Source: a virus (Duplodnaviria > Caudoviricetes). Taken from it: a stretch of 34,152 bases of DNA. A model generated the notes under the pieces. It worked only from the letters and a program-made list of their open reading frames with translations, was not told where the DNA came from and did no database searches. The stretch spans positions 1 through 34,152 of the IMG/VR virus record IMGVR_UViG_3300016467_000352; one strand, given 5' to 3'. Positions 6,419 through 33,588 of the stretch are shown here, one piece after another; position 1 is the first letter of the stretch, and each line of letters starts with the position of its first letter. The translations under genes and the position numbers were made by a program.

Positions 6419-6835
6419 ATGGGGCGCGTTGTAAAAGAGTGGAAGTGTGACGCACACGGATATTTCGAGTCTACGGAAGCGAAATGTCCTCATGGATGCA
6501 CTACCATTAACCAGGTGTTTCTGACGCCGGTTAAGGTAAAGTCTGATCGAACAAAGGGCAGTGACAAAACCCTTGAGCAACTGGCTATAGACTTTCACAT
6601 GAGCGACATTAAATCCGTGCGTGAGGGCGAGGCACAGCCTCCGCGACTGGCGAAGCAGGATAACAATCCCTTCGCGGTCCAGTGGGGTAGCCCGTCAGCC
6701 ATTTCCAACTACAACACGGGTTCCATTGCTGGTGAGAGCGTGAACGGGCTGTCTGCCTTCAAGCAGGCCCGTCCGGGTGGTCCTAAAACGGCCAGTTACA
6801 TTCAGGACCACGAAGGGCTTAAAATCAACAAATGA
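6419..6835 (+). CDS. zinc-ribbon-containing hypothetical protein
   Basis: GAGG SD; EWKCDAHGYFE..CPHGC. Confidence 0.8.
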   Translation: MGRVVKEWKCDAHGYFESTEAKCPHGCTTINQVFLTPVKVKSDRTKGSDKTLEQLAIDFHMSDIKSVREGEAQPPRLAKQDNNPFAVQWGSPSAISNYNTGSIAGESVNGLSAFKQARPGGPKTASYIQDHEGLKINK

Positions 6836-8442
6836 GAATCCCGTCGAATCCCGAAGAGCGCGAGTATTTTTACCTGGACCTCATCAACAAGTGTGAGGTC
6901 AGCATGGAGGTCCGCAAGGGCGACTACTCGACCCTGCGTTCCTACTATCTCTTCGGGAACGACCCGAATTCTGCCCCGGCGCACTACAACAAGATTTACC
7001 CGCATATCGACCAACTGACGAGTTTCCTTTACTCGGCAGAAACGACGCGGTTCTCGATCAATATCGGCGCTGCGGTCAATAAGTCTGAACACAAGAAGAT
7101 TCCGGTTCTGAACCAAGCCCTGAACGACGAGTGGCTGAACAGCAACGCGGATCAAGTGTTCTCGACGGCCCTCACGTGGGCGCTGTGCTACAACAGCACG
7201 TTTATCAAGCTCATCAATCGTGACGGCTTGCATCCGTATTTTGTCGAGCCGGGTGCTATGGGCGTGCTGCGGGAAGATGTGCCTTACCTGGACCGGCAAG
7301 AGGCGTTCGTCCAGAAGTATTACATTACCCGCTCTGAACTCTTCAACCGTCTGTATGCCCATCCCAACCGGGATAGCATCGTCAAGCGTGTTACGTCGGT
7401 CCAGCATGAGCGGTCGGATATTCCTGAAGCGATTGACCGCATCATTACCAGCCAAGTCAATCCGACAATCTACGGTAACGTCAATATCGACCTGAACGGC
7501 TTTGAGCGTTACAAGCCGCGTGTGGCCGAGGACACCGTGGAGATGACGGAACTGTGGGTCTGGAATGATGACACTCAGGACTATCAGATCGTCACGGTTG
7601 CCGATCCTAAAGTCGTCATCTACGACCGTGAGGGCGAGAAGGTCTGGATGAAGGGTGAAACGCCGTTCATTCAAATCTGCCCGAACCCGCAATACGACTA
7701 TTTTTGGGGTCAGTCTGAGGTTCAGAAGCTGATCTACCTGCAAGACATGCGGAACAAGCGTATGTCTGAGATTCTTGACCTTCTGAGTAAGCAGGTTGCC
7801 CCGCCGACTGCCCTGATTGGCTTTAGCGGTATCCTCGACGAGAAGAATTTTGCGCTGCAACGTCCGGGTGGCCTGCTGGCGACTGACATGCCGAGCGCGA
7901 AGGTCGAGCAGCTTGCGCCGAGCATCCCGAACGACCTGTTCCGCGAGATTGACGCTATCGACCAGATGTTCGCTGAAGCCTCTGGCATTGTGTCAGTCCT
8001 GCAAGGTCGGGGTGAGTCCGGGGTGCGTAGTGCCGGTCACGCCTCGCAACTGGCCCGACTGGGGTCTAGCCGAGCCAAAAAACGGGCGCTGATTGTTGAA
8101 GATAGCCTTGAGAAGATGGCTACAATGTATCTCAAGGCCATGCAGGTTTATGACGCCACGAAGTTTACGGATGCTGACGGCAATAAATTCATTGCCAACC
8201 AGTTTACGAAGGATTACGTGGTCAAGGTTGATGCTCACTCTAATAGCCCGATCTTTACTGAAGATTTACGCAGCCTTGCGTTTGAACTCTTCAAGGCCCA
8301 AGCTATAGATCGTGAGTCCTTGCTTGACCTACTTGAGCCGCCGATGAAGCAAGAACTGAAAGATCGGCTTAAGAAGATGGAAGAGAAGCAGGCGCAACAG
8401 CCCCCTGCGGCCCCGCCTGCTCAACTGAAAAAGGTAGGATGA
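6832..8442 (+). CDS. portal protein
   Basis: 536 aa, downstream of terL; podovirus portal-like segments (YFWGQSEVQKLIYLQ, EASGIVSVLQG). Confidence 0.9.
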   Translation: MRIPSNPEEREYFYLDLINKCEVSMEVRKGDYSTLRSYYLFGNDPNSAPAHYNKIYPHIDQLTSFLYSAETTRFSINIGAAVNKSEHKKIPVLNQALNDEWLNSNADQVFSTALTWALCYNSTFIKLINRDGLHPYFVEPGAMGVLREDVPYLDRQEAFVQKYYITRSELFNRLYAHPNRDSIVKRVTSVQHERSDIPEAIDRIITSQVNPTIYGNVNIDLNGFERYKPRVAEDTVEMTELWVWNDDTQDYQIVTVADPKVVIYDREGEKVWMKGETPFIQICPNPQYDYFWGQSEVQKLIYLQDMRNKRMSEILDLLSKQVAPPTALIGFSGILDEKNFALQRPGGLLATDMPSAKVEQLAPSIPNDLFREIDAIDQMFAEASGIVSVLQGRGESGVRSAGHASQLARLGSSRAKKRALIVEDSLEKMATMYLKAMQVYDATKFTDADGNKFIANQFTKDYVVKVDAHSNSPIFTEDLRSLAFELFKAQAIDRESLLDLLEPPMKQELKDRLKKMEEKQAQQPPAAPPAQLKKVG

Positions 8443-8609
8443 TGGCTGAAAAGAGTATGCCGGGTTACGCAACGACCAGCAAAGCCGATCAGCCCCGCGT
8501 TTCCGGGTCGCAACTCAAGACGTATGAGCGTTCTCCCGGTATGACGTATAACCGTTCTGCAATTTCTGGCACTCTGCGGCAAAACCGCAGGGATTATTCC
8601 CGTAAATAA
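8442..8609 (+). CDS. small hypothetical protein (55 aa)
   Basis: Not in ORF track; TGATG overlap with portal stop; MAEKSMPGYATTSKADQPRVSG...RDYSRK*. Confidence 0.7.
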   Translation: MAEKSMPGYATTSKADQPRVSGSQLKTYERSPGMTYNRSAISGTLRQNRRDYSRK

Positions 8610-8620
8610 GGAGCAATAGC

Positions 8621-8665
8621 ATGTATGCTCGAAAGATGAAGCGCGGTCGTAAGTCGCGTCGGTAA
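8621..8665 (+). CDS. 14-aa Arg/Lys-rich micropeptide MYARKMKRGRKSRR
   Basis: TAAGGAG SD 7 nt before ATG; 8 of 14 residues K/R. Confidence 0.65.
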   Translation: MYARKMKRGRKSRR

Positions 8666-8712
8666 AAGAAGTTTAGACAGGGGCTTCAACTAACATAGGA
8701 AAGGAGCTAATC

Positions 8713-8757
8713 ATGGCCCGTAAAGCCCGCAAAGCTCGCAAAGCGAAGCGTAAGTAA
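8713..8757 (+). CDS. 14-aa Arg/Lys-rich micropeptide MARKARKARKAKRK
   Basis: AAAGGAG SD 6 nt before ATG; ARK repeats use varied synonymous codons (GCC/GCT/GCG, CGT/CGC). Confidence 0.7.
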   Translation: MARKARKARKAKRK

Positions 8758-8786
8758 CTAGTCCAGGGGGCAACCTCTGACTGGAT

Positions 8787-8847
8787 GAGAGCGATAGCGT
8801 AAAAACTATCGCTCTCTATTGACACGTTAGTAAATTGGGTTTATACA
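8787..8847 (+). promoter_or_regulatory. 11-bp perfect inverted repeat followed by a sigma70-like promoter for the head genes
   Basis: GAGAGCGATAG(8787-8797)/CTATCGCTCTC(8806-8816); TTGACA 8819-8824, 17 nt, TATACA 8842-8847. Confidence 0.5.
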
Positions 8848-8887
8848 GCCCAAAAATTAAGTGAGTAATCACTTTTTGGAGTAAGTG

Positions 8888-9337
8888 ATGGCAGTCCCGC
8901 CCGATATGTTGGCTATGATCCAGAAGGATCGTGGCATGAAAGCCCCGGCAGAAGCCGCTGCCGCTACTCCCGACGTTGGCACGGGTGGTATGTCTGCCCC
9001 GGAAGCCCCGCCTATGGGCGCTCCGATGACCACGCCCGAACCGAAGATGGGCGAAAAAGAGACTGCCACGATCAACGTGCAGACCGCTATGGACCTGCTG
9101 GAGCAGGCGCTCCCCAAGATTGGGTCGGATAGCGAAGAGGGTCGGGCGATTGTGGATGCCGTGACCAAGCTTACCAAGATTTTCGGCAAGCGTGAGGCGA
9201 AAACCCGCGAACTGATGCCTGCCGAGATTATGAACATGATTTCCTCTCTGCCTCAAGCGGGCGGCGCGACTCCTGAGCAGAGGGTCGCAGCACAAGCGCC
9301 GGTGCCCGGAACCGCAACACCCCCTCTACCCATGTAA
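8888..9337 (+). CDS. hypothetical head-module protein (Pro/Ala/Met-rich)
   Basis: GGAG SD; position between portal and scaffold. Confidence 0.85.
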   Translation: MAVPPDMLAMIQKDRGMKAPAEAAAATPDVGTGGMSAPEAPPMGAPMTTPEPKMGEKETATINVQTAMDLLEQALPKIGSDSEEGRAIVDAVTKLTKIFGKREAKTRELMPAEIMNMISSLPQAGGATPEQRVAAQAPVPGTATPPLPM

Positions 9338-9340
9338 ATT

Positions 9341-9808
9341 ATGGATGCCGCCGTTAACAAACGATTTTTTTCCAAAACTCATCGTAATGATGAGACGGGC
9401 TGCATTGAGTGGACGGCAGCAAAAAACGCCCGTGGATATGGAAAATTTAGCGTTAACGGCGGTTGGGTTATGGCGCACAGGTTTGCGTTTGAAATTGAAA
9501 ATGAGAAGATTCCTGCCGGAAAATTTGTATTGCATCATTGCGACAATCCGTCTTGCGTAAATGTAGAGCATCTTTATGCGGGTTCTACAAAAAACAACGC
9601 AATGGACAGAGAAGCTCGCAATAGAGGCAATCACGCATATGGAACGGGTCACGGTAGAAATAAACTTTTAGAATCACAAGTTTTTGAAATACGTGACGCA
9701 TTCGATACTGGTAAATATTCTTTCCGTAAACTTGGACGAATTTACGGAACGGACGGCAAGTCCATAGCGGACATTGTTGATCGTAAAAACTGGAAACATC
9801 TTATTTAA
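9341..9808 (+). CDS. free-standing HNH homing endonuclease
   Basis: GCIEWT..GYG..AHRFAF..VLHHCDNPSCVNVEHL..N; C-terminal HTH-like region; lower GC than flanks. Confidence 0.9.
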   Translation: MDAAVNKRFFSKTHRNDETGCIEWTAAKNARGYGKFSVNGGWVMAHRFAFEIENEKIPAGKFVLHHCDNPSCVNVEHLYAGSTKNNAMDREARNRGNHAYGTGHGRNKLLESQVFEIRDAFDTGKYSFRKLGRIYGTDGKSIADIVDRKNWKHLI

Positions 9809-9820
9809 GGAGTTCACAAA

Positions 9821-10006
9821 GTGGATCTTTTTCGACCCCGTGGCGCCCAAGCTCCCCGTGGCGCTACCGACAACAAGCAGCAAAACGGCCAGATCGTGAA
9901 CACGCCGCGTTATTCGCAGTTTGGCGGTCTGGATGGTGCTTCTAAGACTGGCAAGAAAAACGCCATGAGCCTTAGCAAGCCCGGCGACACCAAGAAAGTA
10001 ATCTAA
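9821..10006 (+). CDS. small hypothetical head-module protein (61 aa)
   Basis: AAGGAG SD, GTG start. Confidence 0.8.
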   Translation: MDLFRPRGAQAPRGATDNKQQNGQIVNTPRYSQFGGLDGASKTGKKNAMSLSKPGDTKKVI

Positions 10007-10026: not shown

Positions 10027-10557
10027 ATGTCGCTCGAAAATATCGCGCCGGAAACTAGGGATGAAATGGCGGCTCTGCTGAAGAAGCTGTCTGACCATCC
10101 CAAGACTCGCAAAACCATCCTAAAGTCCATCAAGGAAGTCGATCCTGACTTCCACATTCCCGAACTCGAAATCGAAAGCAAGGCCGAGGAAGTCTATTCC
10201 AAGACGACCGAGGAACTTGAGAAGCTTCGTGCCGAGCTTCGGGAGCGTGATGCACGCGATGAACTGTCGAAGCGCCGCAATTCGCTGCTCAAGCAAGGCA
10301 AGGTCAAGTCGGAAGAGGACATTGCCGAGATTGAGAAGATCATGGTTGAGAAGAAGATTGCTGACCATGAAGCGGCTGCCGACTACTTCAACTGGATGAA
10401 ACAGGCGAGTGAGCCGACGCCTTCCAGCTACAACCCTCAAGTCATGAAGCAGTGGGACTTGAGCAAGTATATGAAAAACCCGCAGGGTGCTGCCCGTGAA
10501 GCCGCTGCGGATGCTCTAGCCGAGCTTCGGAAGAACCCGAAGCCGGTCGGACTGTAA
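10027..10557 (+). CDS. putative capsid scaffolding protein
   Basis: Charged, helical/coiled-coil, immediately upstream of the major capsid gene. Confidence 0.7.
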   Translation: MSLENIAPETRDEMAALLKKLSDHPKTRKTILKSIKEVDPDFHIPELEIESKAEEVYSKTTEELEKLRAELRERDARDELSKRRNSLLKQGKVKSEEDIAEIEKIMVEKKIADHEAAADYFNWMKQASEPTPSSYNPQVMKQWDLSKYMKNPQGAAREAAADALAELRKNPKPVGL

Positions 10558-10588: not shown

Positions 10589-11599
10589 ATGCCTATTGGT
10601 GGCGGTATTATCCCGGCCAGTGGCACTAACCAGTATAACGAATTGACGTATGTCACCCGGCGTGCGTTTATTCCGAAGATGGTGGTGCAGCTTTACAACA
10701 GCACGCCGCTCATGGCTGCTCTTCTGGCGAATAGCCAGCAGGCGTCCGGCGGTGTGTCGTCGGTCACTGTTCCGGTTCAAGGTGCTCAGTTCGTTAACGC
10801 TCAGTGGTCGGATTACTCCGGTTCGTTCGCGCAACCGGCGGTCCAGCAAGGTGCGTATAACGCGGAATTCAACCTCAAGCTGATGATTGCCCCCGTGCCG
10901 TTCCTCGGCATGGAAGGTGCGGTGCAGCAAGACTACGCCATCATCCCGCTCATCGAAGCGCGGATGAACGACGCGACCAACGTCATGATGGACGCGATGG
11001 CGTATGCCCTCTACAACAACACCACGAATGCCCAACAGTTTACGGGCCTTCCGGCGGCGATTGACGATGGCACGGGCACTGCGACCTACGGCAACATCAA
11101 CCGCTCGACCTACACCTGGTGGAAGTCGAAGCAGTATGCTGCTGGCTCGCAAAACCCGACTCGTCAGAACGTCCTGCAATACATCAGCGGCACCGTGAAG
11201 AACGGCGCTGAAGTCCCGACGTTTGGCGTGTGCGGCTTCGGCACCTGGACGCTGCTTGCGCAAGACTACGTGGGTCAAGAGCAATATGTCATCACGCCGG
11301 GTTCTGGCTTTGATGCGGATGCGAATGGTCCGCAGGCCGCGTTCCGTGCGCTGATGGTTGCTGGTGTGCCGATCTACCCCGATCCCTACTGCCCGGAAGG
11401 GACTCTGTATCTCATCAACAGCAACTACATGTCGCTGTATGTGCATGAGAAGGGTTCGTTTGTGTTCACCGGCTTTGAATCGACCCTGCCGAACTGGCAG
11501 ATCGGTTACGTTGGTGCGGTCCTTACCATCGCGGAGCTTGTTTCGACCAAGCCGAAGTCGATGACTAAGGTCACGGGCTATAACTCCCTCACGCTGTAA
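10589..11599 (+). CDS. major capsid protein (HK97 fold)
   Basis: 336 aa, AGGAG SD, strong codon bias; TYGNINRSTYTWWKS, GVPIYPDPYCPEGTLYLIN. Confidence 0.9.
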   Translation: MPIGGGIIPASGTNQYNELTYVTRRAFIPKMVVQLYNSTPLMAALLANSQQASGGVSSVTVPVQGAQFVNAQWSDYSGSFAQPAVQQGAYNAEFNLKLMIAPVPFLGMEGAVQQDYAIIPLIEARMNDATNVMMDAMAYALYNNTTNAQQFTGLPAAIDDGTGTATYGNINRSTYTWWKSKQYAAGSQNPTRQNVLQYISGTVKNGAEVPTFGVCGFGTWTLLAQDYVGQEQYVITPGSGFDADANGPQAAFRALMVAGVPIYPDPYCPEGTLYLINSNYMSLYVHEKGSFVFTGFESTLPNWQIGYVGAVLTIAELVSTKPKSMTKVTGYNSLTL

Positions 11600-11951: not shown

Positions 11952-12362
11952 ATGCAATCGAACCGTGTAGGCGCGCTGCTTCCTGATAACTTCGGTAGTT
12001 TTTCCATCGTTAACGTGCGTGCCGCGAGTGTTGGCACCACGGGTAACGCGGTGGTTACGCTTCCGGTTCAGGCGGGTTCGTCTTACATTGTTCGCCAAGT
12101 GACTATCGCTAACGCTAGCGGCAGTATCAATACCGCGAACGTCGTCATTCTTACGTCCTCGGACGGGAATGCGTCGAACGCGATTACTGCCGTTAGCGTG
12201 CTGTCGAATATCACCAGCACGACGACCTATCAAGACCTTTCGCTGGCGGCGGGTGCGGCTACGACCGTTTACACCGCTCCGGCACTGTTCCTGAAGGTCA
12301 ACACTGCTGTTGCTAACGCGACTTGCGATATTCAGGTCTACGGCGACATTGTGACCCCGTAA
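11952..12362 (+). CDS. putative virion structural protein
   Basis: Thr/Ala/Val-rich beta-sandwich-like composition; position. Confidence 0.75.
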   Translation: MQSNRVGALLPDNFGSFSIVNVRAASVGTTGNAVVTLPVQAGSSYIVRQVTIANASGSINTANVVILTSSDGNASNAITAVSVLSNITSTTTYQDLSLAAGAATTVYTAPALFLKVNTAVANATCDIQVYGDIVTP

Positions 12363-27919: not shown

Positions 27920-28666
27920 TTACTCTGCGGGAATGAAACCCCCTTCAAAAATATAACTCCCGATGTGCGCCAGCGACACCCACGGCGCAACCCAAATGCT
28001 CCCGCCTGCCTTGCGGTAAAGCTGGCAGAAGTGGTAGTCCTCGGACAAAAGCCGGTTCGTATCCTTTTCGATAGAGCAGTCAAAGTAGGCCGTAATCTGA
28101 TCGCCAGGATTCACGTTGCCTGTCAGGTCTACTACGTCGCTGGTATAGACCGGAACTTTCAGTCTGTCCGTAATCTCACCGAATACCCTGCGCTGAATGA
28201 GCATAAAGCCCGTGCCAGCGTTCATAACCTCTAGCGGCTCGTTGATAGGCACGGTTACTTCTGAGGCGTATCCGGCCAGATTGACCACAAAGCTACCCGT
28301 ATACTTCTGTAGGTTCTCTACGCCACGTTTAGCCGCGTCAGAAACGGTTTTCCAGTTAATCTCTTTCTTGGGGTAGATACCGGCGATAACCGGCTTGTCG
28401 GCCTGAATCATGCTCAGAACGTCGTTTCCCTGAAAACGTATGTCTGAGTCTATGAACATGAAGTGCGTGAAGTCGGTCTTAAACGCATTCTTGACCATCG
28501 CATTACGTGCACGCTGAATCAGGCTTTCGTTGAACATAAACGACACTGAAAGCTTGATTCCTGAGTTCTGACACGCTTGCACCAGGCTGATGATGCCCTG
28601 CGTAAATGCGCCGTGGCACATGCCACCATACATCGGCGTGGCTACGAACAGATGGGTTTGTTCCAT
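27920..28666 (-). CDS. glycosyltransferase-like protein (GT-A fold)
   Basis: LFVATPMYGG..ESLIQRARN..THFMFIDSDI (DxD)..GTGFMLI..LSEDYHFC..LAHIG. Confidence 0.85.
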   Translation of the reverse strand: MEQTHLFVATPMYGGMCHGAFTQGIISLVQACQNSGIKLSVSFMFNESLIQRARNAMVKNAFKTDFTHFMFIDSDIRFQGNDVLSMIQADKPVIAGIYPKKEINWKTVSDAAKRGVENLQKYTGSFVVNLAGYASEVTVPINEPLEVMNAGTGFMLIQRRVFGEITDRLKVPVYTSDVVDLTGNVNPGDQITAYFDCSIEKDTNRLLSEDYHFCQLYRKAGGSIWVAPWVSLAHIGSYIFEGGFIPAE

Positions 28667-28687
28667 ATTATTCTCCTAGAGATAGGT

Positions 28688-28757
28688 GTGCGGTCCTGGG
28701 AACGCTGCCGCACCAGCGCCTAACCTCCCAACACGTTGCGTGTCGGAGTGTCCCAAG
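28688..28757 (-). ncRNA. compact structured leader RNA (three-way junction with loop pseudoknot)
   Basis: P1 CTTGGGA/TCCCAGG, P2 CTCCGACACG/CGTGTTGGGAG, P3 GCGCTG/CAGCGT, loop GTGCGG pairs with downstream CCGCAC. Confidence 0.55.
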
Positions 28758-28771
28758 TCACCGGAGGGTTC

Positions 28772-29080
28772 TCAACTAATATCCTCTACGCGCAACACGT
28801 AGCGGCCTTTTGAGTTCTTTCGCCATCCGTGGACTATGATACGCCAACCAGCGTCCCTAACCTTCGGCAGATAGTCGGATTCCATGATCTTCTTGATACG
28901 GCTGCTAACCCCGGTGCTCGTAACCTGCACAGCCAGTGTTTCATCCTTTCGGATGGCAAGAAGGTCTATAAACCCGAATAAGTCCTGCCGTATGCGAGCA
29001 TGAGGATTCCACCGCTCTACGATAGCGACGGTGTAGCCCTCTTCCCGCAGGTAGGCTAGGGAACGCTGTGTGGGAGTCAT
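28772..29080 (-). CDS. PD-(D/E)xK nuclease (VRR-NUC/Holliday-junction-resolvase-like)
   Basis: LREEGYTVAIVE..DLFGFIDLLAI..LAVQVT..WRIIVHGW. Confidence 0.75.
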   Translation of the reverse strand: MTPTQRSLAYLREEGYTVAIVERWNPHARIRQDLFGFIDLLAIRKDETLAVQVTSTGVSSRIKKIMESDYLPKVRDAGWRIIVHGWRKNSKGRYVLRVEDIS

Positions 29081-29397
29081 CAGAACGGAATGTCTGGATC
29101 AGTATCGCCTCGGAAGGGAACCGCATCTGATTCTTTACGGCGGTAGTTCCCGTCATTGTCGGTATAGCTCTGACGAGGCTGGTTCTTCCAGTCATCCGTC
29201 TGATGCGTGAAGGACACCATGAAGTTACCGTTACGGGTTTCCTTGAACCATCCTGCCAGTTCGATCTTCTCACCCGCTTCGATACGCTGCTTCGCCCGGA
29301 ATGCGCCACGCATATTAGGACTCTTGTCGCTCTTGCCTTTGCTCTCAAACATGATGCCGCGACCGTCCTGAACCTCGATGTCTTTATACTCAGCCAT
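29080..29397 (-). CDS. putative single-stranded DNA-binding protein
   Basis: KSDKSPNMRG..IELAGW..FMVSF; acidic SSB-type tail DPDIPF. Confidence 0.7.
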   Translation of the reverse strand: MAEYKDIEVQDGRGIMFESKGKSDKSPNMRGAFRAKQRIEAGEKIELAGWFKETRNGNFMVSFTHQTDDWKNQPRQSYTDNDGNYRRKESDAVPFRGDTDPDIPF

Positions 29398-29399
29398 GA

Positions 29400-29594
29400 C
29401 TACCCTTTAATTAAGTGATACTTCGCGTAAGACTTCCCGTTGCGCTTCACTGTCTCTGTAACGATTGTGTTACCTTGCTTCCTGAGTTCATCGACTCGGC
29501 TGGCTAGGCGCATGATGCCAAGCTCGTTGAGCGCCTCCAAAGACGTTATGGGGCCGCGTGCAAGCCTCTGCAACACGGCCTCATTCTGTGTCAG
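29400..29594 (-). CDS. winged helix-turn-helix protein lacking a canonical start (CTG start or frameshift product)
   Basis: Not in track; (L)TQNEAVLQRLARGPITSLEALNELGIMRLASRVDELRKQGNTIVTETVKRNGKSYAKYHLIKG*. Confidence 0.75.
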   Translation of the reverse strand: MTQNEAVLQRLARGPITSLEALNELGIMRLASRVDELRKQGNTIVTETVKRNGKSYAKYHLIKG

Positions 29595-30436
29595 CCCTCC
29601 GAGCCTTGCGGCTTTTCCTCGGTGTTCGCTCCTGCTTTTGCAATAGCACCCAGGATGCGCGTCATCTCCCCAAGCCCAACCTTTTTGAAGGTAGCCTTGT
29701 TGAGTTCCTTAAGCTCTGCCAGCTTTTCGTCCTTTCCCGCAGCATCCAGCTTGTCACTGTTCTTAATACGTTCAGCTACTTTAACAATAGCATCTGTGTA
29801 TTCTTCAACAGTGTCAAAGTGAGCAAATACACCGTCCTTACCCGGAATACGCAGTTCCAGGTTCATAGACGGTTTCTTAGTTTCCTCGACGATCTTAGGG
29901 CCGTCGTCCAGGTCGTCAAAGGTCGTAACCGTCACGGTCGGCGTAATATCCTTTTCGGCAGGCTGAAAGTCCTGCACTTCCTCCGGCGTGTAGGTGCCTG
30001 CGATACACCCCGGATAAACGGTCCTGATGCCCTCAGAAATGACTCTAGCCCTGAGCATGGCACGCGGATACTTCTCCCAACCGCTACCGGGCTTGTAAAG
30101 CCCTATACGCTTCGCCTGAGCGATTTCCCATGACAGGGTGACACTACCCCCCTGAGGATGGCTAAAAACGCCTGTAACGCGTTCGTCGGTGTATTCCTTC
30201 CACTCTACCTTGCCACCGCTGGACTGGAACCGGGCGAGCATGGCATCAGCCTTGAGGGTAGGACGGCCCTGAATTACGTGATAATCGCGAGCTGCGATAG
30301 CCGGATGGTAGCCTTCTGCCTGTGCGATCAGCATGAGTGCCATAGCCTGCTCAGGCGACTTAACCCCGAAAAGGCCAGACTTCGCCACCGCCAGCGCCAT
30401 CTTCTCTACATCTGCGACAGGAACCAAGTTAGACAT
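29591..30436 (-). CDS. RecT-like single-strand annealing recombinase
   Basis: AVAKSGLF..AMALML..HVIQGRPTLKADAM..AKRIGL..WEKYPRAMLRARVISE..YTPEEV; adjacent to YqaJ. Confidence 0.85.
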   Translation of the reverse strand: MSNLVPVADVEKMALAVAKSGLFGVKSPEQAMALMLIAQAEGYHPAIAARDYHVIQGRPTLKADAMLARFQSSGGKVEWKEYTDERVTGVFSHPQGGSVTLSWEIAQAKRIGLYKPGSGWEKYPRAMLRARVISEGIRTVYPGCIAGTYTPEEVQDFQPAEKDITPTVTVTTFDDLDDGPKIVEETKKPSMNLELRIPGKDGVFAHFDTVEEYTDAIVKVAERIKNSDKLDAAGKDEKLAELKELNKATFKKVGLGEMTRILGAIAKAGANTEEKPQGSEG

Positions 30437-30549
30437 TTTGATACTCCTAATGTTAGGTATTCAAGGACTAATATTAGCAGATACGAAAGAAATGCTACAA
30501 TAGCAGCACCTACTATCTGTAACACGCTAATATCGTCCTCATGCTTCAT
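30406..30549 (-). CDS. small membrane protein (47 aa)
   Basis: Not in track; ATGA overlap with YqaJ stop; LQIVGAAIVAFLSYLLILVL hydrophobic. Confidence 0.55.
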   Translation of the reverse strand: MKHEDDISVLQIVGAAIVAFLSYLLILVLEYLTLGVSKCLTWFLSQM

Positions 30550-31439
30550 TTAATGAGAAACCGACGATTACCGGGTTTAGTCATCACAAACTGTTCGTAA
30601 ATGTCTGGCATGGAGGACTTGAACAGTTCTCGGTCGAAAGCCTTGCTTTCCTTGCTTTGCTTCCAGGTGCAGAGGACTTTCCCATCTGTGGACATGAGTG
30701 CTTCTGCCGAGCCTAGAAGGTTCTGAAGCTTGGCCTCGTAGGTTTCCACCACCTTTTCGTGCTGCTTAATCTGATCCTTCAGGACACGAAGTTCTCGACA
30801 GACTTGCGCGACGTCCTCACCCACAGTCCGCGTTGTGCCGTCTGCCCTCGGAAATAGCTTCCGAGCCGCCTCCGGTGTATTGGCAGCAGGCGGGGTGCGT
30901 GTTTGTATATTCCCCCAAACCTCTGCCTCGGTCTGGATAAGAACATCTTTTGCTGCTTCTTCTGCGTCCAACGAGAATATTCGAAGCTCCTGGCCGCCAA
31001 ATAGAACACAGAGCAATACCTTTTCAACGCCATGAACGGCGGCCTCGTGAATACACTGTGCCAAGTCCTCTTCTGGGACCAGTGTAGAACCATCTTCTCC
31101 GAAGTTCTTAGATTTGTCGAACCGATAATTCTTAATTTCGAGAAGTGCATTTCCGTCCTCCGTAATGAAGTCGAAGTGAGATTTCATCCACTCATGCTTC
31201 TTATGCGTCAGACTGTAGTCTGCTTCTTTGATATTAAGACGTAGCTTGTCTGCTGCTGCTCTGGCGATGCTTTCCTGCAAGCGCAGTCCCCATTGAGCGG
31301 GTTCGTAGTCGGAAAGGTCAGGCGGTGCGACTTCCCCGATACGCTCGAGATATACCTCTGCTGCACGGCCTGCGACGATCTTCCTGGCGTCAGTTGCCCA
31401 CAGGCCGGTATTACGCACTTCAGGTGCAAAGTCATTCAT
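30546..31439 (-). CDS. YqaJ-like viral recombinase exonuclease (lambda-exonuclease family)
   Basis: WGLRLQESI..HKKHEWMKSHFDF..LLEIKN..QCIHEAAV..VLFGGQE; start MNDFAPE. Confidence 0.9.
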   Translation of the reverse strand: MNDFAPEVRNTGLWATDARKIVAGRAAEVYLERIGEVAPPDLSDYEPAQWGLRLQESIARAAADKLRLNIKEADYSLTHKKHEWMKSHFDFITEDGNALLEIKNYRFDKSKNFGEDGSTLVPEEDLAQCIHEAAVHGVEKVLLCVLFGGQELRIFSLDAEEAAKDVLIQTEAEVWGNIQTRTPPAANTPEAARKLFPRADGTTRTVGEDVAQVCRELRVLKDQIKQHEKVVETYEAKLQNLLGSAEALMSTDGKVLCTWKQSKESKAFDRELFKSSMPDIYEQFVMTKPGNRRFLIK

Positions 31440-31641
31440 GGCGTTTCCCTTTTTTTTCAGACATACGTTTTCGAGAGTGTTCCATACATTCGGCACACTT
31501 CCAGCGTCTAGCGGTGTTTGTTTTTACGATGCCGCCACCCTCCAGACTCATATGCCGACTACAGCTAGAGCAGTATTTCTTACCTGTCATTTCCTGCATT
31601 TTTGCTGTTAACCCCCTTCTCACTTTACCATCACCTATCAT
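31432..31641 (-). CDS. small Zn-finger protein
   Basis: CSSC..RWKCAEC. Confidence 0.8.
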   Translation of the reverse strand: MIGDGKVRRGLTAKMQEMTGKKYCSSCSRHMSLEGGGIVKTNTARRWKCAECMEHSRKRMSEKKGKRHE

Positions 31642-31707
31642 TTACGTTTCCTTTTTCACCGGCTCTGCGCTCGGCTCGGGCTTGTGCAACAATTCGCGGT
31701 CGGTCAT
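31642..31707 (-). CDS. 21-aa ORF, probable collapsed gene remnant
   Basis: GGAG SD, MTDRELLHKPEPSAEPVKKET*, ATGA overlap upstream and abuts the next ATG. Confidence 0.4.
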   Translation of the reverse strand: MTDRELLHKPEPSAEPVKKET

Positions 31708-31793
31708 TTCTCCCTCTCCTTCAGCATCGCGTCGGCAATAGTTGAACGCAGACGCTCCTCAAAATTAGTGCTTACGCAGGGATCGCGGTTCAT
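31704..31793 (-). CDS. 29-aa ORF ending in ADAMLKERE motif
   Basis: GAGG SD, ATGA coupling; MNRDPCVSTNFEERLRSTIADAMLKEREK*. Confidence 0.45.
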   Translation of the reverse strand: MNRDPCVSTNFEERLRSTIADAMLKEREK

Positions 31794-31981
31794 GCCATCC
31801 TCACAATCGGCTTTACGTGGCATGAATGATGAAGCGTTGTGCGCTGACCAAGAGATTCGTTCCAGCACTCATGCCGGTGTCCGCTAGGCGTGATCGGACT
31901 AGCGCCTAGATAAACATAAGTCTCTCTCGTCCGCAGCAGCATAAATCGCTGACCGCGAGAAAGATTCCGCACTCGTTTCAT
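31790..31981 (-). CDS. hypothetical protein (63 aa)
   Basis: ATGA coupling both sides; GAGGGG SD. Confidence 0.7.
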   Translation of the reverse strand: MKRVRNLSRGQRFMLLRTRETYVYLGASPITPSGHRHECWNESLGQRTTLHHSCHVKPIVRMA

Positions 31982-32139
31982 TTCTCACCCCTCAACGTGT
32001 CGTAGACGGTGATAACGTCGGCAGTTGCGTCAGGCCATGTATTGATAGCTCTGGCTAACAGAGTGATGACGGTATCTTTTTCCTCTGGCGAGAATGACAG
32101 ACAGTAGTCACCGTTGAGAAACTCTTTAGTCAATTTCAT
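31978..32139 (-). CDS. hypothetical protein (53 aa)
   Basis: Not in track; GGAGG SD, TAATG overlap; MKLTKEFLNGDYCLSFSPEEK...LRGEK*. Confidence 0.7.
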   Translation of the reverse strand: MKLTKEFLNGDYCLSFSPEEKDTVITLLARAINTWPDATADVITVYDTLRGEK

Positions 32140-32333
32140 TACTTGGCCTCCCAGTGTTTACCGCTTTCACCGCATGTTGTCTTACTGCCTGCATCAAGAC
32201 GTTCAGCACGGCAGTATTTGACTTTATCTTCGCCGGTAACCAGGTCTTGCTCGCGTATCCACGGGCAGACGCAACGATGCTCGGTCATGCCGCCCATCTC
32301 ATGCCATTTGCAATCAATACACAGTTTCAACAT
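32139..32333 (-). CDS. Cys-rich small phage protein
   Basis: GGAGG SD; KLCIDCKWH..C..DLVTG..YC..ER..CG..GKHWEAK. Confidence 0.8.
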   Translation of the reverse strand: MLKLCIDCKWHEMGGMTEHRCVCPWIREQDLVTGEDKVKYCRAERLDAGSKTTCGESGKHWEAK

Positions 32334-32344
32334 AAAGCCTCCAG

Positions 32345-32690
32345 GTTAGGGTGATGCACTGACGGGGACTGCTAGGTGTTCCCTAAAAAATCTCTCACTA
32401 GGTGTTTTACTGTCTTGTAAACGCTGGACTCCGTGTCACGGCACGAGGACGGTGGCTGCTGTGTTATATGCGATGTATCCCTCGGCTGCTCACTCGACAA
32501 CACCTAACCCCCTATATTGTTTTAGTAGGGGCTACCGTTAAAAAACGGCGCTGCTCTCGTTTATCACACTAGACTGCCGTCCCACAGGATTCACCTGCTA
32601 GCTCTGGCGAGCGGGACACCGTGTGTTTATTCCCTATGTCGCAGCGACAAGCGGGAGGGCTGGGTCATGGCCCCGTAAGCCCTGTGAGAA
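32345..32690 (-). ncRNA. putative structured non-coding RNA (function unknown)
   Basis: No credible ORF; series of nested stems whose mismatches are G-U on the minus strand. Confidence 0.5.
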
Positions 32691-32692
32691 TG

Positions 32693-32783
32693 AAAAAACC
32701 CCTACGGCTGGGCTTCTGGTCGCGGTCACGGTGAGAGCCAATCGGGATACTCTCGTCGCCACCGAAACCCATGCGTAGGGGTT
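32693..32783 (-). ncRNA. C4/CI-like antisense RNA with terminator-forming outer stem
   Basis: AACCCCTACG/CGTAGGGGTT-TTTT outer stem; loop TCCCGATTGG and CCGTGAC complementary to upstream CCAATCGGGA (32787-32796) and GTCACGG (32809-32815). Confidence 0.75.
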
Positions 32784-32845
32784 CGCTCCCGATTGGAATT
32801 TGTTCACCCCGTGACGGGCGACCTGTCGTTTTCACAGGTGACAAC

Positions 32846-32874
32846 ATCATAATGCTACTAAATGACAGCGTCAA
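32846..32874 (-). promoter_or_regulatory. sigma70 promoter driving the C4-like RNA and downstream operon
   Basis: TTGACG (32874-32869), 17 nt, TATGAT (32851-32846). Confidence 0.75.
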
Positions 32875-32893
32875 CTAGAATGTGCGTTGGGAC

Positions 32894-33448
32894 TCACGGG
32901 CGGGTTCCCCATTGTTCGGCCATTGCCTGCGCTATGCCGGGATACGTCCGGCTGCGTTCCTTCCAGCGGTTAGGTCCTGGTGGCATCAGGTGGACACGCG
33001 CATGGCGACCATCCACGATATTGGACGGTTTGAGCAGCGGCAATCCCTTTAGCCACAGGCAAGTCGCTTTAGTCTCGCCGTGACCGTGTTGCCACGGCTG
33101 TATGATCTGGTCCGGTTTCCGTATGCGACTGGAAATAATGCTTACCGGGTTTTCCAGTGCTATACGTGGAATGTTGCACTGCAATAACATCCTGACGAAG
33201 TCTAGCGCCTCTGCCTGCTCGACCTGTTTGTCCTTGAACCATCGGGCGCCGGATACGGATAGATGCGTGCAGGGCGGGTGCGCGATCATCATGTCCCAAT
33301 GCTGGCCGAGAATGTCCCGAACGTCGCCCTGGTAGTGCTGCCCCGGCGTTTCTGAGGGTAGCAGGTCGCAGGACCATGCATCATGCCCTAGACGGGCGAA
33401 TGCATCGCGCACGGTCCCGCTAAACTCACAGGCCACCAATACCCTCAC
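32894..33448 (-). CDS. short DNA cytosine-5 methyltransferase-like protein (184 aa)
   Basis: VLVACEFSG, AHPPC (motif IV), ENP (motif VI), KATCLWLKGLP, RSRTYPGIAQAMAEQW; GTGA overlap start. Confidence 0.85.
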   Translation of the reverse strand: MRVLVACEFSGTVRDAFARLGHDAWSCDLLPSETPGQHYQGDVRDILGQHWDMMIAHPPCTHLSVSGARWFKDKQVEQAEALDFVRMLLQCNIPRIALENPVSIISSRIRKPDQIIQPWQHGHGETKATCLWLKGLPLLKPSNIVDGRHARVHLMPPGPNRWKERSRTYPGIAQAMAEQWGTRP

Positions 33449-33588
33449 GGTAGCGGCACTCCCGTTTCCCGTGAGAGTAACTCGGCATCCTCGGCGGTCG
33501 TGGTGCCGTGTAGCACACGCACCAGGGCGTCCTGCACCTGACGGAACCGTTCTGTCTCTAGCTCCTGCTGCCACCGATAGTCGTCCAT
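33445..33588 (-). CDS. hypothetical protein (47 aa)
   Basis: Not in track; MDDYRWQQELETERFRQVQDAL...GVPLP*, coupled to the MTase start. Confidence 0.65.
   Translation of the reverse strand: MDDYRWQQELETERFRQVQDALVRVLHGTTTAEDAELLSRETGVPLP

Follow-up and report, generated by a model that had tools for sequence, protein, structure and literature searches.

The window, by which we mean the whole 34,152-base virus record analyzed here, is 96% complete and contains a podovirus-like late block with the gene order terminase (4238), portal, a 56-aa ORF, micro-ORF1, micro-ORF2, a 150-aa ORF, an HNH gene, a 61-aa ORF, a scaffold-like gene, and the major head protein. The portal protein (6832 to 8442, plus strand) matches the PHROGs portal family (E 1.9e-9) and Pfam SU10_portal (E 3.6e-10), and the major head protein (10589 to 11599, plus strand) matches phrog_9953 (E 9.7e-36). 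An AlphaFold model of this capsid protein had a pLDDT of 31, and PDB sequence searches were uninformative. The gene at 10027 takes its scaffold-like label from its position and composition. Two other neighbors encode small basic proteins, each with a net charge of +7. The 56-aa ORF (8439 to 8609, plus strand) follows the portal gene and has an Arg-rich C-terminal tail, which often ends in R-x-Y-x-R-R/K across its family; it had no PHROG, Pfam, or NCBIfam match, and an Atlas search gave only a 0.76 lead. The 61-aa ORF (9821 to 10006) has no family matches and carries an NPPR-x-x-E/Q-x-GGL-like core. Both are conserved in relatives, the 61-aa ORF even in the most distant clades, and we regard both as candidate internal or cement proteins. 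The HNH endonuclease gene (9341 to 9808; PHROGs E 2e-28), located between the 150-aa and 61-aa genes, is likely a mobile insertion, since it is absent at the same place in the GenBank relative MW202825. One related locus, L344, has an HNH-like ORF further downstream. The early region of the window (27920 to 33574, minus strand) encodes a RecE-like exonuclease and RecT-like annealing pair, a DNA methyltransferase, and a phrog_1574/glycosyltransferase-like gene.

Between the portal gene and the scaffold-like and capsid genes, a first-pass annotation had pointed out two 14-codon ORFs, both of which can be read directly from the sequence. Micro-ORF1 runs on the plus strand from the ATG at 8621 to the TAA at 8665 and encodes MYARKMKRGRKSRR, with 8 K+R and zero acidic residues. 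Micro-ORF2, also on the plus strand, runs from the ATG at 8713 to the TAA at 8757 and encodes MARKARKARKAKRK, with 9 K+R and zero acidic residues. Each is preceded by a Shine-Dalgarno (SD) sequence, AAGGAG, at 8608 to 8613 and 8701 to 8706 (both plus strand), and the spacers of 7 nt and 6 nt to the respective ATG agree with the earlier description of these sites as well spaced. The first SD overlaps the TAA stop of the 56-aa ORF, so translational coupling between the two is likely. Three ARK repeats, encoded by GCC CGT AAA, GCC CGC AAA, and GCT CGC AAA, differ only at third positions, and the claim that they vary only synonymously holds. The spacer between the micro-ORFs (8666 to 8700, plus strand) is shorter than in most relatives and has no pseudoknot. 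Only 2 of the 12 SD-led ORFs of 9 to 30 aa in the window reach a K/R content of at least 45%, and these are the two micro-ORFs; when the window was block shuffled, 1 of 100 versions yielded one ORF with at least 50% K/R.

We assessed conservation in the portal-capsid interval of related phages, where the first-pass annotation had suggested looking for further SD-led K/R micro-ORFs. A portal search identified 122 viral relatives, and among the best 80 of these 122 plus the window, 49 loci had two micro-ORFs, 19 had one, and 13 had none; 7 of these 13 end at or just past the portal stop. Addition of 32 more distant loci brought the set to 113, and omission of 22 with an incomplete interval left 91. 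At least one K/R micro-ORF was present between the portal and capsid genes in 85 of the 91 loci (window included), at portal identities down to 38%. Carrier loci have one to three copies, with L001 and L062 counted as having three owing to an internal ATG in the 56-aa gene, and the near clade has its second or third copies upstream, whereas in distant clades they lie downstream. The SD, start, and stop are kept in frame across relatives, and of 178 cassettes, 168 have an SD core 6 to 9 nt away from the start codon, the SD being part of the search filter. As a control for position, we searched 637,496 bases on both strands and found that all 117 SD-led ORFs of 9 to 30 aa with at least 45% K/R sit in the portal-capsid slot.

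The coding sequences also carry a signature of selection at the protein level. For homologous coding sequences, pN/pS was 0.36 for ORF1 (101 distinct sequences, 2,230 same-length pairs, stop-anchored last 7 codons) and 0.28 for ORF2 (76 distinct sequences, 913 same-length pairs, stop-anchored last 9 codons), values that are indicative only because of K/R filtering (applied to all of the ORF1 and some of the ORF2 sequences) and the phylogenetic non-independence of pairs, with synonymous sites partly saturated. Mean entropies at codon positions 1, 2, and 3 were 0.67, 0.37, and 1.31 bits in ORF1 and 0.61, 0.61, and 1.12 bits in ORF2. Together, the conservation, codon pattern, and slot specificity strongly support the view that both ORFs are conserved protein-coding genes under purifying selection, as had been proposed from the window alone. 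Near-identical strains carried a synonymous CGA>CGC change at 8632 in ORF1 in 4 of 4 DNA runs, the sole change listed inside the ORFs, and no substitution in ORF2 was among those listed for the same number of runs; the spacer had five substitutions at 8669 to 8677 in 3 of 4 DNA runs. Contigs from four RNA libraries of four studies, which may be DNA and are no proof of transcription, also span the region (X15, 8517 to 9337; X18, 8536 to 9134; X20, 8547 to 8933; X17, 8675 to 8846), and the indels among those listed (8609, 8617, 8666, and 8672) flank the ORFs.

The micro-genes had been expected to escape standard gene callers, and indeed MW202825 has both ORFs with neither annotated. Among GenBank phage matches, no cultured member was found at the family's distance, and micro-ORFs were absent from all six distant GenBank phage regions searched (Mx8, Mx9, BUCT555, ppBjS10J-1, a TM7 phage, and ct52p938; ~12.7 kb each, 22 to 27% capsid identity). 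A 31-aa candidate inside an Mx9 gene was off-frame and was dismissed. In the Stenotrophomonas phage BUCT555, a 52-aa basic protein lies directly after the probable portal gene (L355:3930-4088) and is a possible functional analogue in the same slot. In a peptide-pattern scan, 5 of 119 matches were long ORFs without family context, and the 3 examined were off-frame reads of collagen-like repeats. Genome bins containing relatives span many phyla and may be mis-binned. A 24-aa homologue had no Pfam or NCBIfam match and appears in a public collection as an unnamed singleton gene call. Our literature search found no paper with the peptide string RKARKGRK and nothing on podovirus arginine-rich condensing peptides. 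The peptides may be listed without a name in a 2022 catalogue of small phage genes. The micro-genes are apparently undescribed.

The peptides vary in sequence within narrow limits of composition. Examples from relatives include MARKARKGRKARK, MRKGRKGRKSRK, MARRHRRHKRK, MARKARKARKSRRKSKR, and MMYGKAKMAPKMARMGRKARKGRK. In a set of 55 distinct peptides found behind a pseudoknot, for which D/E were excluded by design and at least 40% K/R was required, length ranged from 10 to 24 aa, R/(K+R) from 0.40 to 0.86, and K+R from 6 to 10 with a mode of 8. Across 177 distinct sequences collected with no D/E filter, K+R made up 54 to 58% of residues, and D, E, F, W, L, and I were entirely absent. Outside that set, the pure-polycation pattern is broken by Asp in L025 and L325 and by Phe, Leu, and Glu in L382. 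The very high K/R content and near-zero content of acidic and hydrophobic residues agree with the earlier description of the peptides as protamine-like. Length and Lys/Arg mix drift while K+R stays at 6 to 10, which points to a charge-based role. The MAR(K/R) start and a period-3 pattern are conserved more than a nonspecific polycation needs.

Downstream of ORF2, the hairpin and inverted repeat noted in the first-pass annotation fold as claimed. A GCAA-loop (GNRA) hairpin (8758 to 8784, core 8764 to 8779, plus strand) lies directly 3' of the ORF2 stop and likely protects the 3' side of the mRNA. It is followed by an 11-bp inverted repeat with an 8-nt loop and no U-tract (8787 to 8816, arms 8787 to 8797 and 8806 to 8816, plus strand), a candidate terminator, stabilizer, or operator. 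The fold of 8750 to 8830 has a z score of -5.8, with 0 of 200 shuffles as stable, and a terminator scan of the window found none. In relatives, the 70 nt past the stop fold at z < -2 in 99 of 147 cases, GNRA accounts for 33 of 67 tetraloops past stops, and a U-tailed terminator follows the cassette in only 24 of 147. Immediately 3' of the inverted repeat, a promoter-like site (TTGACA, 17 nt, TATACA; 8819 to 8847, plus strand) faces the capsid genes. It went uncalled in a sigma-70 scan because the rule demands T at position 6 of the second hexamer. In the near clade, 48 of 50 distinct downstream segments have TTGACA (8819 to 8824 in the window) 3' of the ORFs, and the -10 element is degenerate, usually without the final T (TACAAA, TATATC, TATACA); a phage activator may be needed. 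The TTGACA-type promoter has a different place in several distant relatives, immediately 5' of the pseudoknot and ORF (14 of 148 by pattern). The first-pass annotation had overlooked both the TTGACA at 8819 to 8824 and the pseudoknot carried by relatives. Two ideas about the spacer were discarded. A weak hairpin in the window spacer was rejected because the fold is insignificant (z -0.8) and the substitutions between strains are confined to its 5' arm. An anti-SD switch received too little support: SD pairing was 0.52, against 0.43 in shuffled spacers, and exceeded the shuffled value in 98 of the 148 related sequences.

In most relatives, the spacer ahead of a micro-ORF contains a hairpin and a predicted H-type pseudoknot. 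The motif, exemplified by L021:7870-7932 and by 178 cassettes in other loci, is ~35 nt long and lies directly before the K/R micro-ORF. It consists of a stem 1 of 4 to 5 bp, a U-N-U loop, a stem 2 of 7 to 10 bp with a GGCUGC/GUGGCC core containing tandem U-G/G-U pairs, and an A-rich loop, and it ends 17 to 32 nt ahead of the start codon (20 to 23 nt in 146 of 178 cassettes). In 32 portal-selected sequences, 87.3% of alignment cells pair, with complete (100%) pairing in stem 1 and two-sided changes at 7 of the 14 pairs; none of 500 shuffles reached the observed pairing, and slid controls gave 44 to 68%. Among distinct motifs, stem 1 is fully paired (4/4) in 127 of 137 (shuffled maximum, 103), and among non-GGG types it is paired in 15 of 18 (shuffled maximum, 11). 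When stem 1 was left unconstrained in a stem-2-only scan, 37 of 42 viral matches fell in the peptide-carrying phage family, and stem 1 took the forms GGGG/CCCC, ACGG/CCGU, GCAG/CUGC, GUGG/CCAC, AUGG/CCAU, and others. The motif is thus predicted to form two interleaved stems, both with compensatory changes, as in an H-type pseudoknot.

This pseudoknot is closely tied to the peptide genes. A peptide ORF accompanies it in 120 of 120 pattern matches and in all 37 family matches of the stem-2-only scan. Strict criteria were satisfied by 117 of the 120; of the remaining three, one begins with GTG, one encodes a 24-aa peptide with 37.5% K/R, and one is cut by the locus end. Family genes lie beside the motif in all 80 matches with long flanks, the other 40 of 120 having short flanks, and of five whole records, four contained the motif, once in each. 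The pattern used in the 91-locus count missed four variants. A stem-2-only scan of metagenomes gave 119 matches from 7 of 64 parts, a small sample, with no link to metabolic genes, and we rejected a host-chromosome riboswitch; 3 of the 119 had a K/R ORF (2 with family context), 116 lacked both, and the 10 of these 116 with a chance stem 1 had no SD-led ORF. Rfam gave no matches in the window at 8300 to 9000 and none at gathering score for the motif in 8 related loci, L021 returning only noise (E 3.4 and 9.2). A covariance model built from 32 relatives had no match at the window spacer, its best hit, elsewhere, having an E value of 0.2. We found nothing in the literature on phage pseudoknots with small ORFs. 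PMC10690425 presents a catalogue of candidate viral RNAs from IMG/VR; the motif strings are absent from its text supplements, alignment files aside, and the motif may be among its anonymous candidates.

The pseudoknot most likely sets the rate of peptide translation, either by loading S1/30S or by serving as an autogenous operator of the gp32 type; it may alternatively be a 5' stabilizer. In T4 gene 32, a pseudoknot upstream of the start is described as controlling translation of a nucleic acid-binding protein (PMC3014915), and in tisB a pseudoknot is reported to load S1/30S on a small-peptide mRNA (PMC7708055). The relatives' pseudoknot resembles those of T4 gene 32, rpsO, and tisB in lying upstream of the start, and differs from them in sequence; it is also closer, at 17 to 32 nt, compared with the 67 nt given for gene 32 and ~100 nt for the tisB standby site. 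As a compact cis element without an Rfam match, it is a good candidate for a new translational control RNA and merits reporting as an RNA motif in its own right.

A quick portal tree of 42 loci gives some indication of the history of the cassette. Every deep branch has both pseudoknot and peptide, apart from L336 and L339, two long single branches that have kept only the peptides. The window groups with L001 and L062 in a supported clade that has no pseudoknot, and this subclade appears to have lost it; peptides are also kept without it in L025, L046, L325, and L352. Loci without peptides number 6 of 91, belong to two lineages (L015 and L041 to L045), and are nested tips in the tree. Given the presence of peptide and pseudoknot in nearly all deep branches and the nesting of the peptide-less lineages, the two-part cassette is likely ancestral. 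The peptide can outlast the pseudoknot, and a pseudoknot without a peptide was never seen. In peptide-less L041 (5215-5394; also L042 to L045), the 56-aa homologue ends in SYGRKMR, resembling the MYGRKMKR start of ORF1, a likeness that could possibly reflect fusion with deletion or a shared origin. In L331, L333, L334, and L245, small-residue-rich genes are inserted behind or around the peptide cassette, before the 150-aa homologue; by eye they resemble the window gene at 11952 to 12362 and are probably decoration or structural genes.

Based on position, composition, and analogy, we infer that the peptides substitute for polyamines and screen DNA charge during packaging or inside the head, a reading to which we assign a probability of about 0.5 and which follows the first-pass annotation in treating them as encoded polyamine substitutes. 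The strong SDs and the use of CGU or CGC for 297 of 302 ORF2 Arg codons suggest that the micro-ORFs would be translated at a high level late in infection; in the window lineage, which has no pseudoknot, ORF1 is probably coupled to the upstream gene. The peptides would be unstructured and bind nucleic acid electrostatically, without sequence specificity. They could enter the head with the scaffold or through procapsid pores (at ~1.7 kDa), or coat the DNA ahead of the motor, and would lower DNA-DNA repulsion as spermidine does. To screen 10% of the genome's 68,304 phosphates would take roughly 850 copies, and to screen all of them ~8,500. Conserved charge with free exchange of K and R favors this reading, and a copy number of 1 to 3 fits a dosage role. 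Precedents come from other viruses: PMC9410871 reports spermidine as essential for in vitro packaging of 39.7-kb HK97 DNA, PMC3012670 describes the charge of T4 DNA as offset by polyamines, cations, and the lysyl amines of internal proteins, adenovirus mu is a short basic peptide carried in the virion (PMC7998265), and PMC7096446 describes the capsid proteins of motor-packaging phages as lacking R-arms. In the peptide-carrying family, capsid K+R is 12 to 19, versus 23 to 33 in the six distant phages without micro-ORFs; the capsid protein of the window is unusually charge-poor, at about half the level of these phages.

Several observations weigh against this counter-ion role. Two lineages lack the peptides and show no compensation by the capsid: the capsid proteins of L042 to L044, the loci of these lineages in which the capsid gene is present, have 14 K+R and 20 D+E, the same charge as in carriers (15 K+R and 20 D+E in 336 aa in the window), and we rejected compensation by a more basic capsid. 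Acidic residues are scarce in the capsid protein too, so its low K+R may only reflect a charge-poor fold. A few peptides (L025, L325, and L382) depart from the pure-polycation pattern. The MAR(K/R) start and period-3 pattern appear over-conserved for a simple polycation, and a U-tailed terminator that would enrich the mRNA follows only 24 of 147 cassettes.

We therefore weighed the counter-ion role against other activities that a small basic peptide might have. Arginine-rich peptides bind RNA grooves, and the micro-ORFs could encode regulatory RNA binders with an arginine-rich motif that bind the pseudoknot, the GNRA hairpins, or host ribosomes or RNA and set head-gene expression. The ORFs do sit among conserved RNA structures, the pseudoknot never occurs without a peptide ORF, GNRA makes up about half of the tetraloops past stops (33 of 67), and stem 2 keeps GGCUG/UGGCC with its tandem U-G/G-U pairs over 38 to 100% portal identity, which suggests a specific partner. 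However, several lineages have peptides but no pseudoknot, so the peptides do not exist for its sake; they have no effector domain, their K and R swap freely, and a purely self-regulating peptide would have no output. We consider this role unlikely. Somewhat more doubtful is a structural role in assembly, in which the peptides act as basic glue between acidic surfaces of portal, capsid, and scaffold or DNA, like free versions of the 56-aa protein tails. Net charges of -11 (portal), -5 (capsid protein), -3 (scaffold-like protein), and -4 (150-aa protein) would offer such surfaces alongside the two +7 neighbors, and both the R-x-Y-x-R-R/K tails and the SYGRKMR end in the L041 group, close to the ORF1 start, also count in its favor. 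The hydrophobic anchors usual in protein-protein interfaces are almost absent, though, and peptide length and order vary widely.

Two further readings have little in their favor. Amino acid attenuator leaders are short, strongly biased in amino acid content, and followed by hairpins, and the micro-ORFs resemble them in size (mostly 10 to 17 aa), amino acid bias, and downstream hairpins; the promoter just upstream of pseudoknot and ORF in several distant relatives would also suit leader peptides that sense charged tRNA-Arg or tRNA-Lys and gate capsid-gene transcription. Yet pairing between the coding region and the downstream hairpin is no better than in synonymous recodings (median z +0.5; 1 of 147 below -2), and the same is true of pairing with the pseudoknot (1 of 148). 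The window has no U-tailed terminator and relatives have one in only 24 of 147 cases, the near-clade TTGACA 3' of the ORFs (48 of 50) would bypass any attenuator, and the amino acid to be sensed is not conserved (Arg fraction 0.40 to 0.86). We found no support for classical attenuation and consider such leader peptides highly improbable. Polycations of this size can permeabilize Gram-negative outer membranes, and the peptides might act on the host in that way, as small toxins, or as late-released compactors of the host nucleoid. They have no hydrophobic or amphipathic segment and no export signal, their place in the head module is fixed, and an unsystematic look noticed no antisense antitoxin. 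We give this reading the least credence of all, even though the tisB toxin is a known case of a pseudoknot-dependent small-peptide mRNA (PMC7708055).

It is conceivable, if quite unlikely, that the polyamine substitute and the pseudoknot together form a DNA-charge homeostat, in which the peptide is paired with its own polycation-sensing RNA switch. The tandem G-U groove of the pseudoknot, at the edge of the ribosome footprint, would bind free peptide or host polyamine, and peptide synthesis would be turned down once the DNA is saturated. Lineages like that of the window would then have dropped the switch and now run open-loop.

Returning to the counter-ion role, motor-packaging dsDNA phages are generally thought to use host Mg2+ and polyamines against DNA charge, and eukaryotic viruses bring their own basic peptides. 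If our reading is correct, phages can encode their own counter-ion, and a widespread podovirus-like family has dedicated polycation genes. We know of few conserved phage genes as short as the micro-ORFs. Comparable genes may have escaped notice elsewhere, since annotation of the one GenBank relative checked omits these and trypsin digestion for proteomics would cut the peptides to fragments. What is apparently new here is the recognition of K/R micro-genes as conserved phage genes and of a companion pseudoknot unlisted in Rfam.

Known nucleic acid-condensing proteins offer several points of comparison. Like the micro-ORF peptides, protamines and baculovirus P6.9 are described as basic, low-complexity, and presumably unstructured nucleic acid binders. 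Protamines and P6.9 are longer, typically Arg-clustered, and phosphoregulated, whereas the micro-ORF peptides contain Lys and Arg in similar amounts, are 10 to 24 aa long, and come from phages of bacterial hosts. The DNA-binding protein J/VP8 of Microviridae is a small basic phage protein that enters the capsid with the genome; it belongs to ssDNA phages, acts by co-assembly, and has ~24 to 38 aa with a hydrophobic C terminus that anchors it to the coat, an anchor that the micro-ORF peptides lack. With the polyamines and lysine-rich internal proteins of T4 and HK97 packaging, the shared theme is charge screening of packaged DNA. The T4 internal proteins are folded (IPI* has 76 aa) and have a sequence that targets them to the capsid, and some of them are anti-restriction factors; polyamines are host metabolites. 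The micro-ORF peptides, in contrast, are phage encoded and have no visible targeting sequence. Another very short and highly basic peptide is adenovirus mu (protein X), which, according to PMC7998265, has 19 aa and is present at 100 to 300 copies per virion; its precursor has DNA-binding activity and contributes to genome condensation. In that eukaryotic virus, a viral protease releases mu from a precursor of 79 aa, whereas the micro-ORFs are free-standing genes of 10 to 24 codons with their own SD in a tailed phage. We claim neither homology to mu nor membership in any such family; by analogy, the micro-ORF peptides probably act like mu or protamine-type counter-ion peptides.
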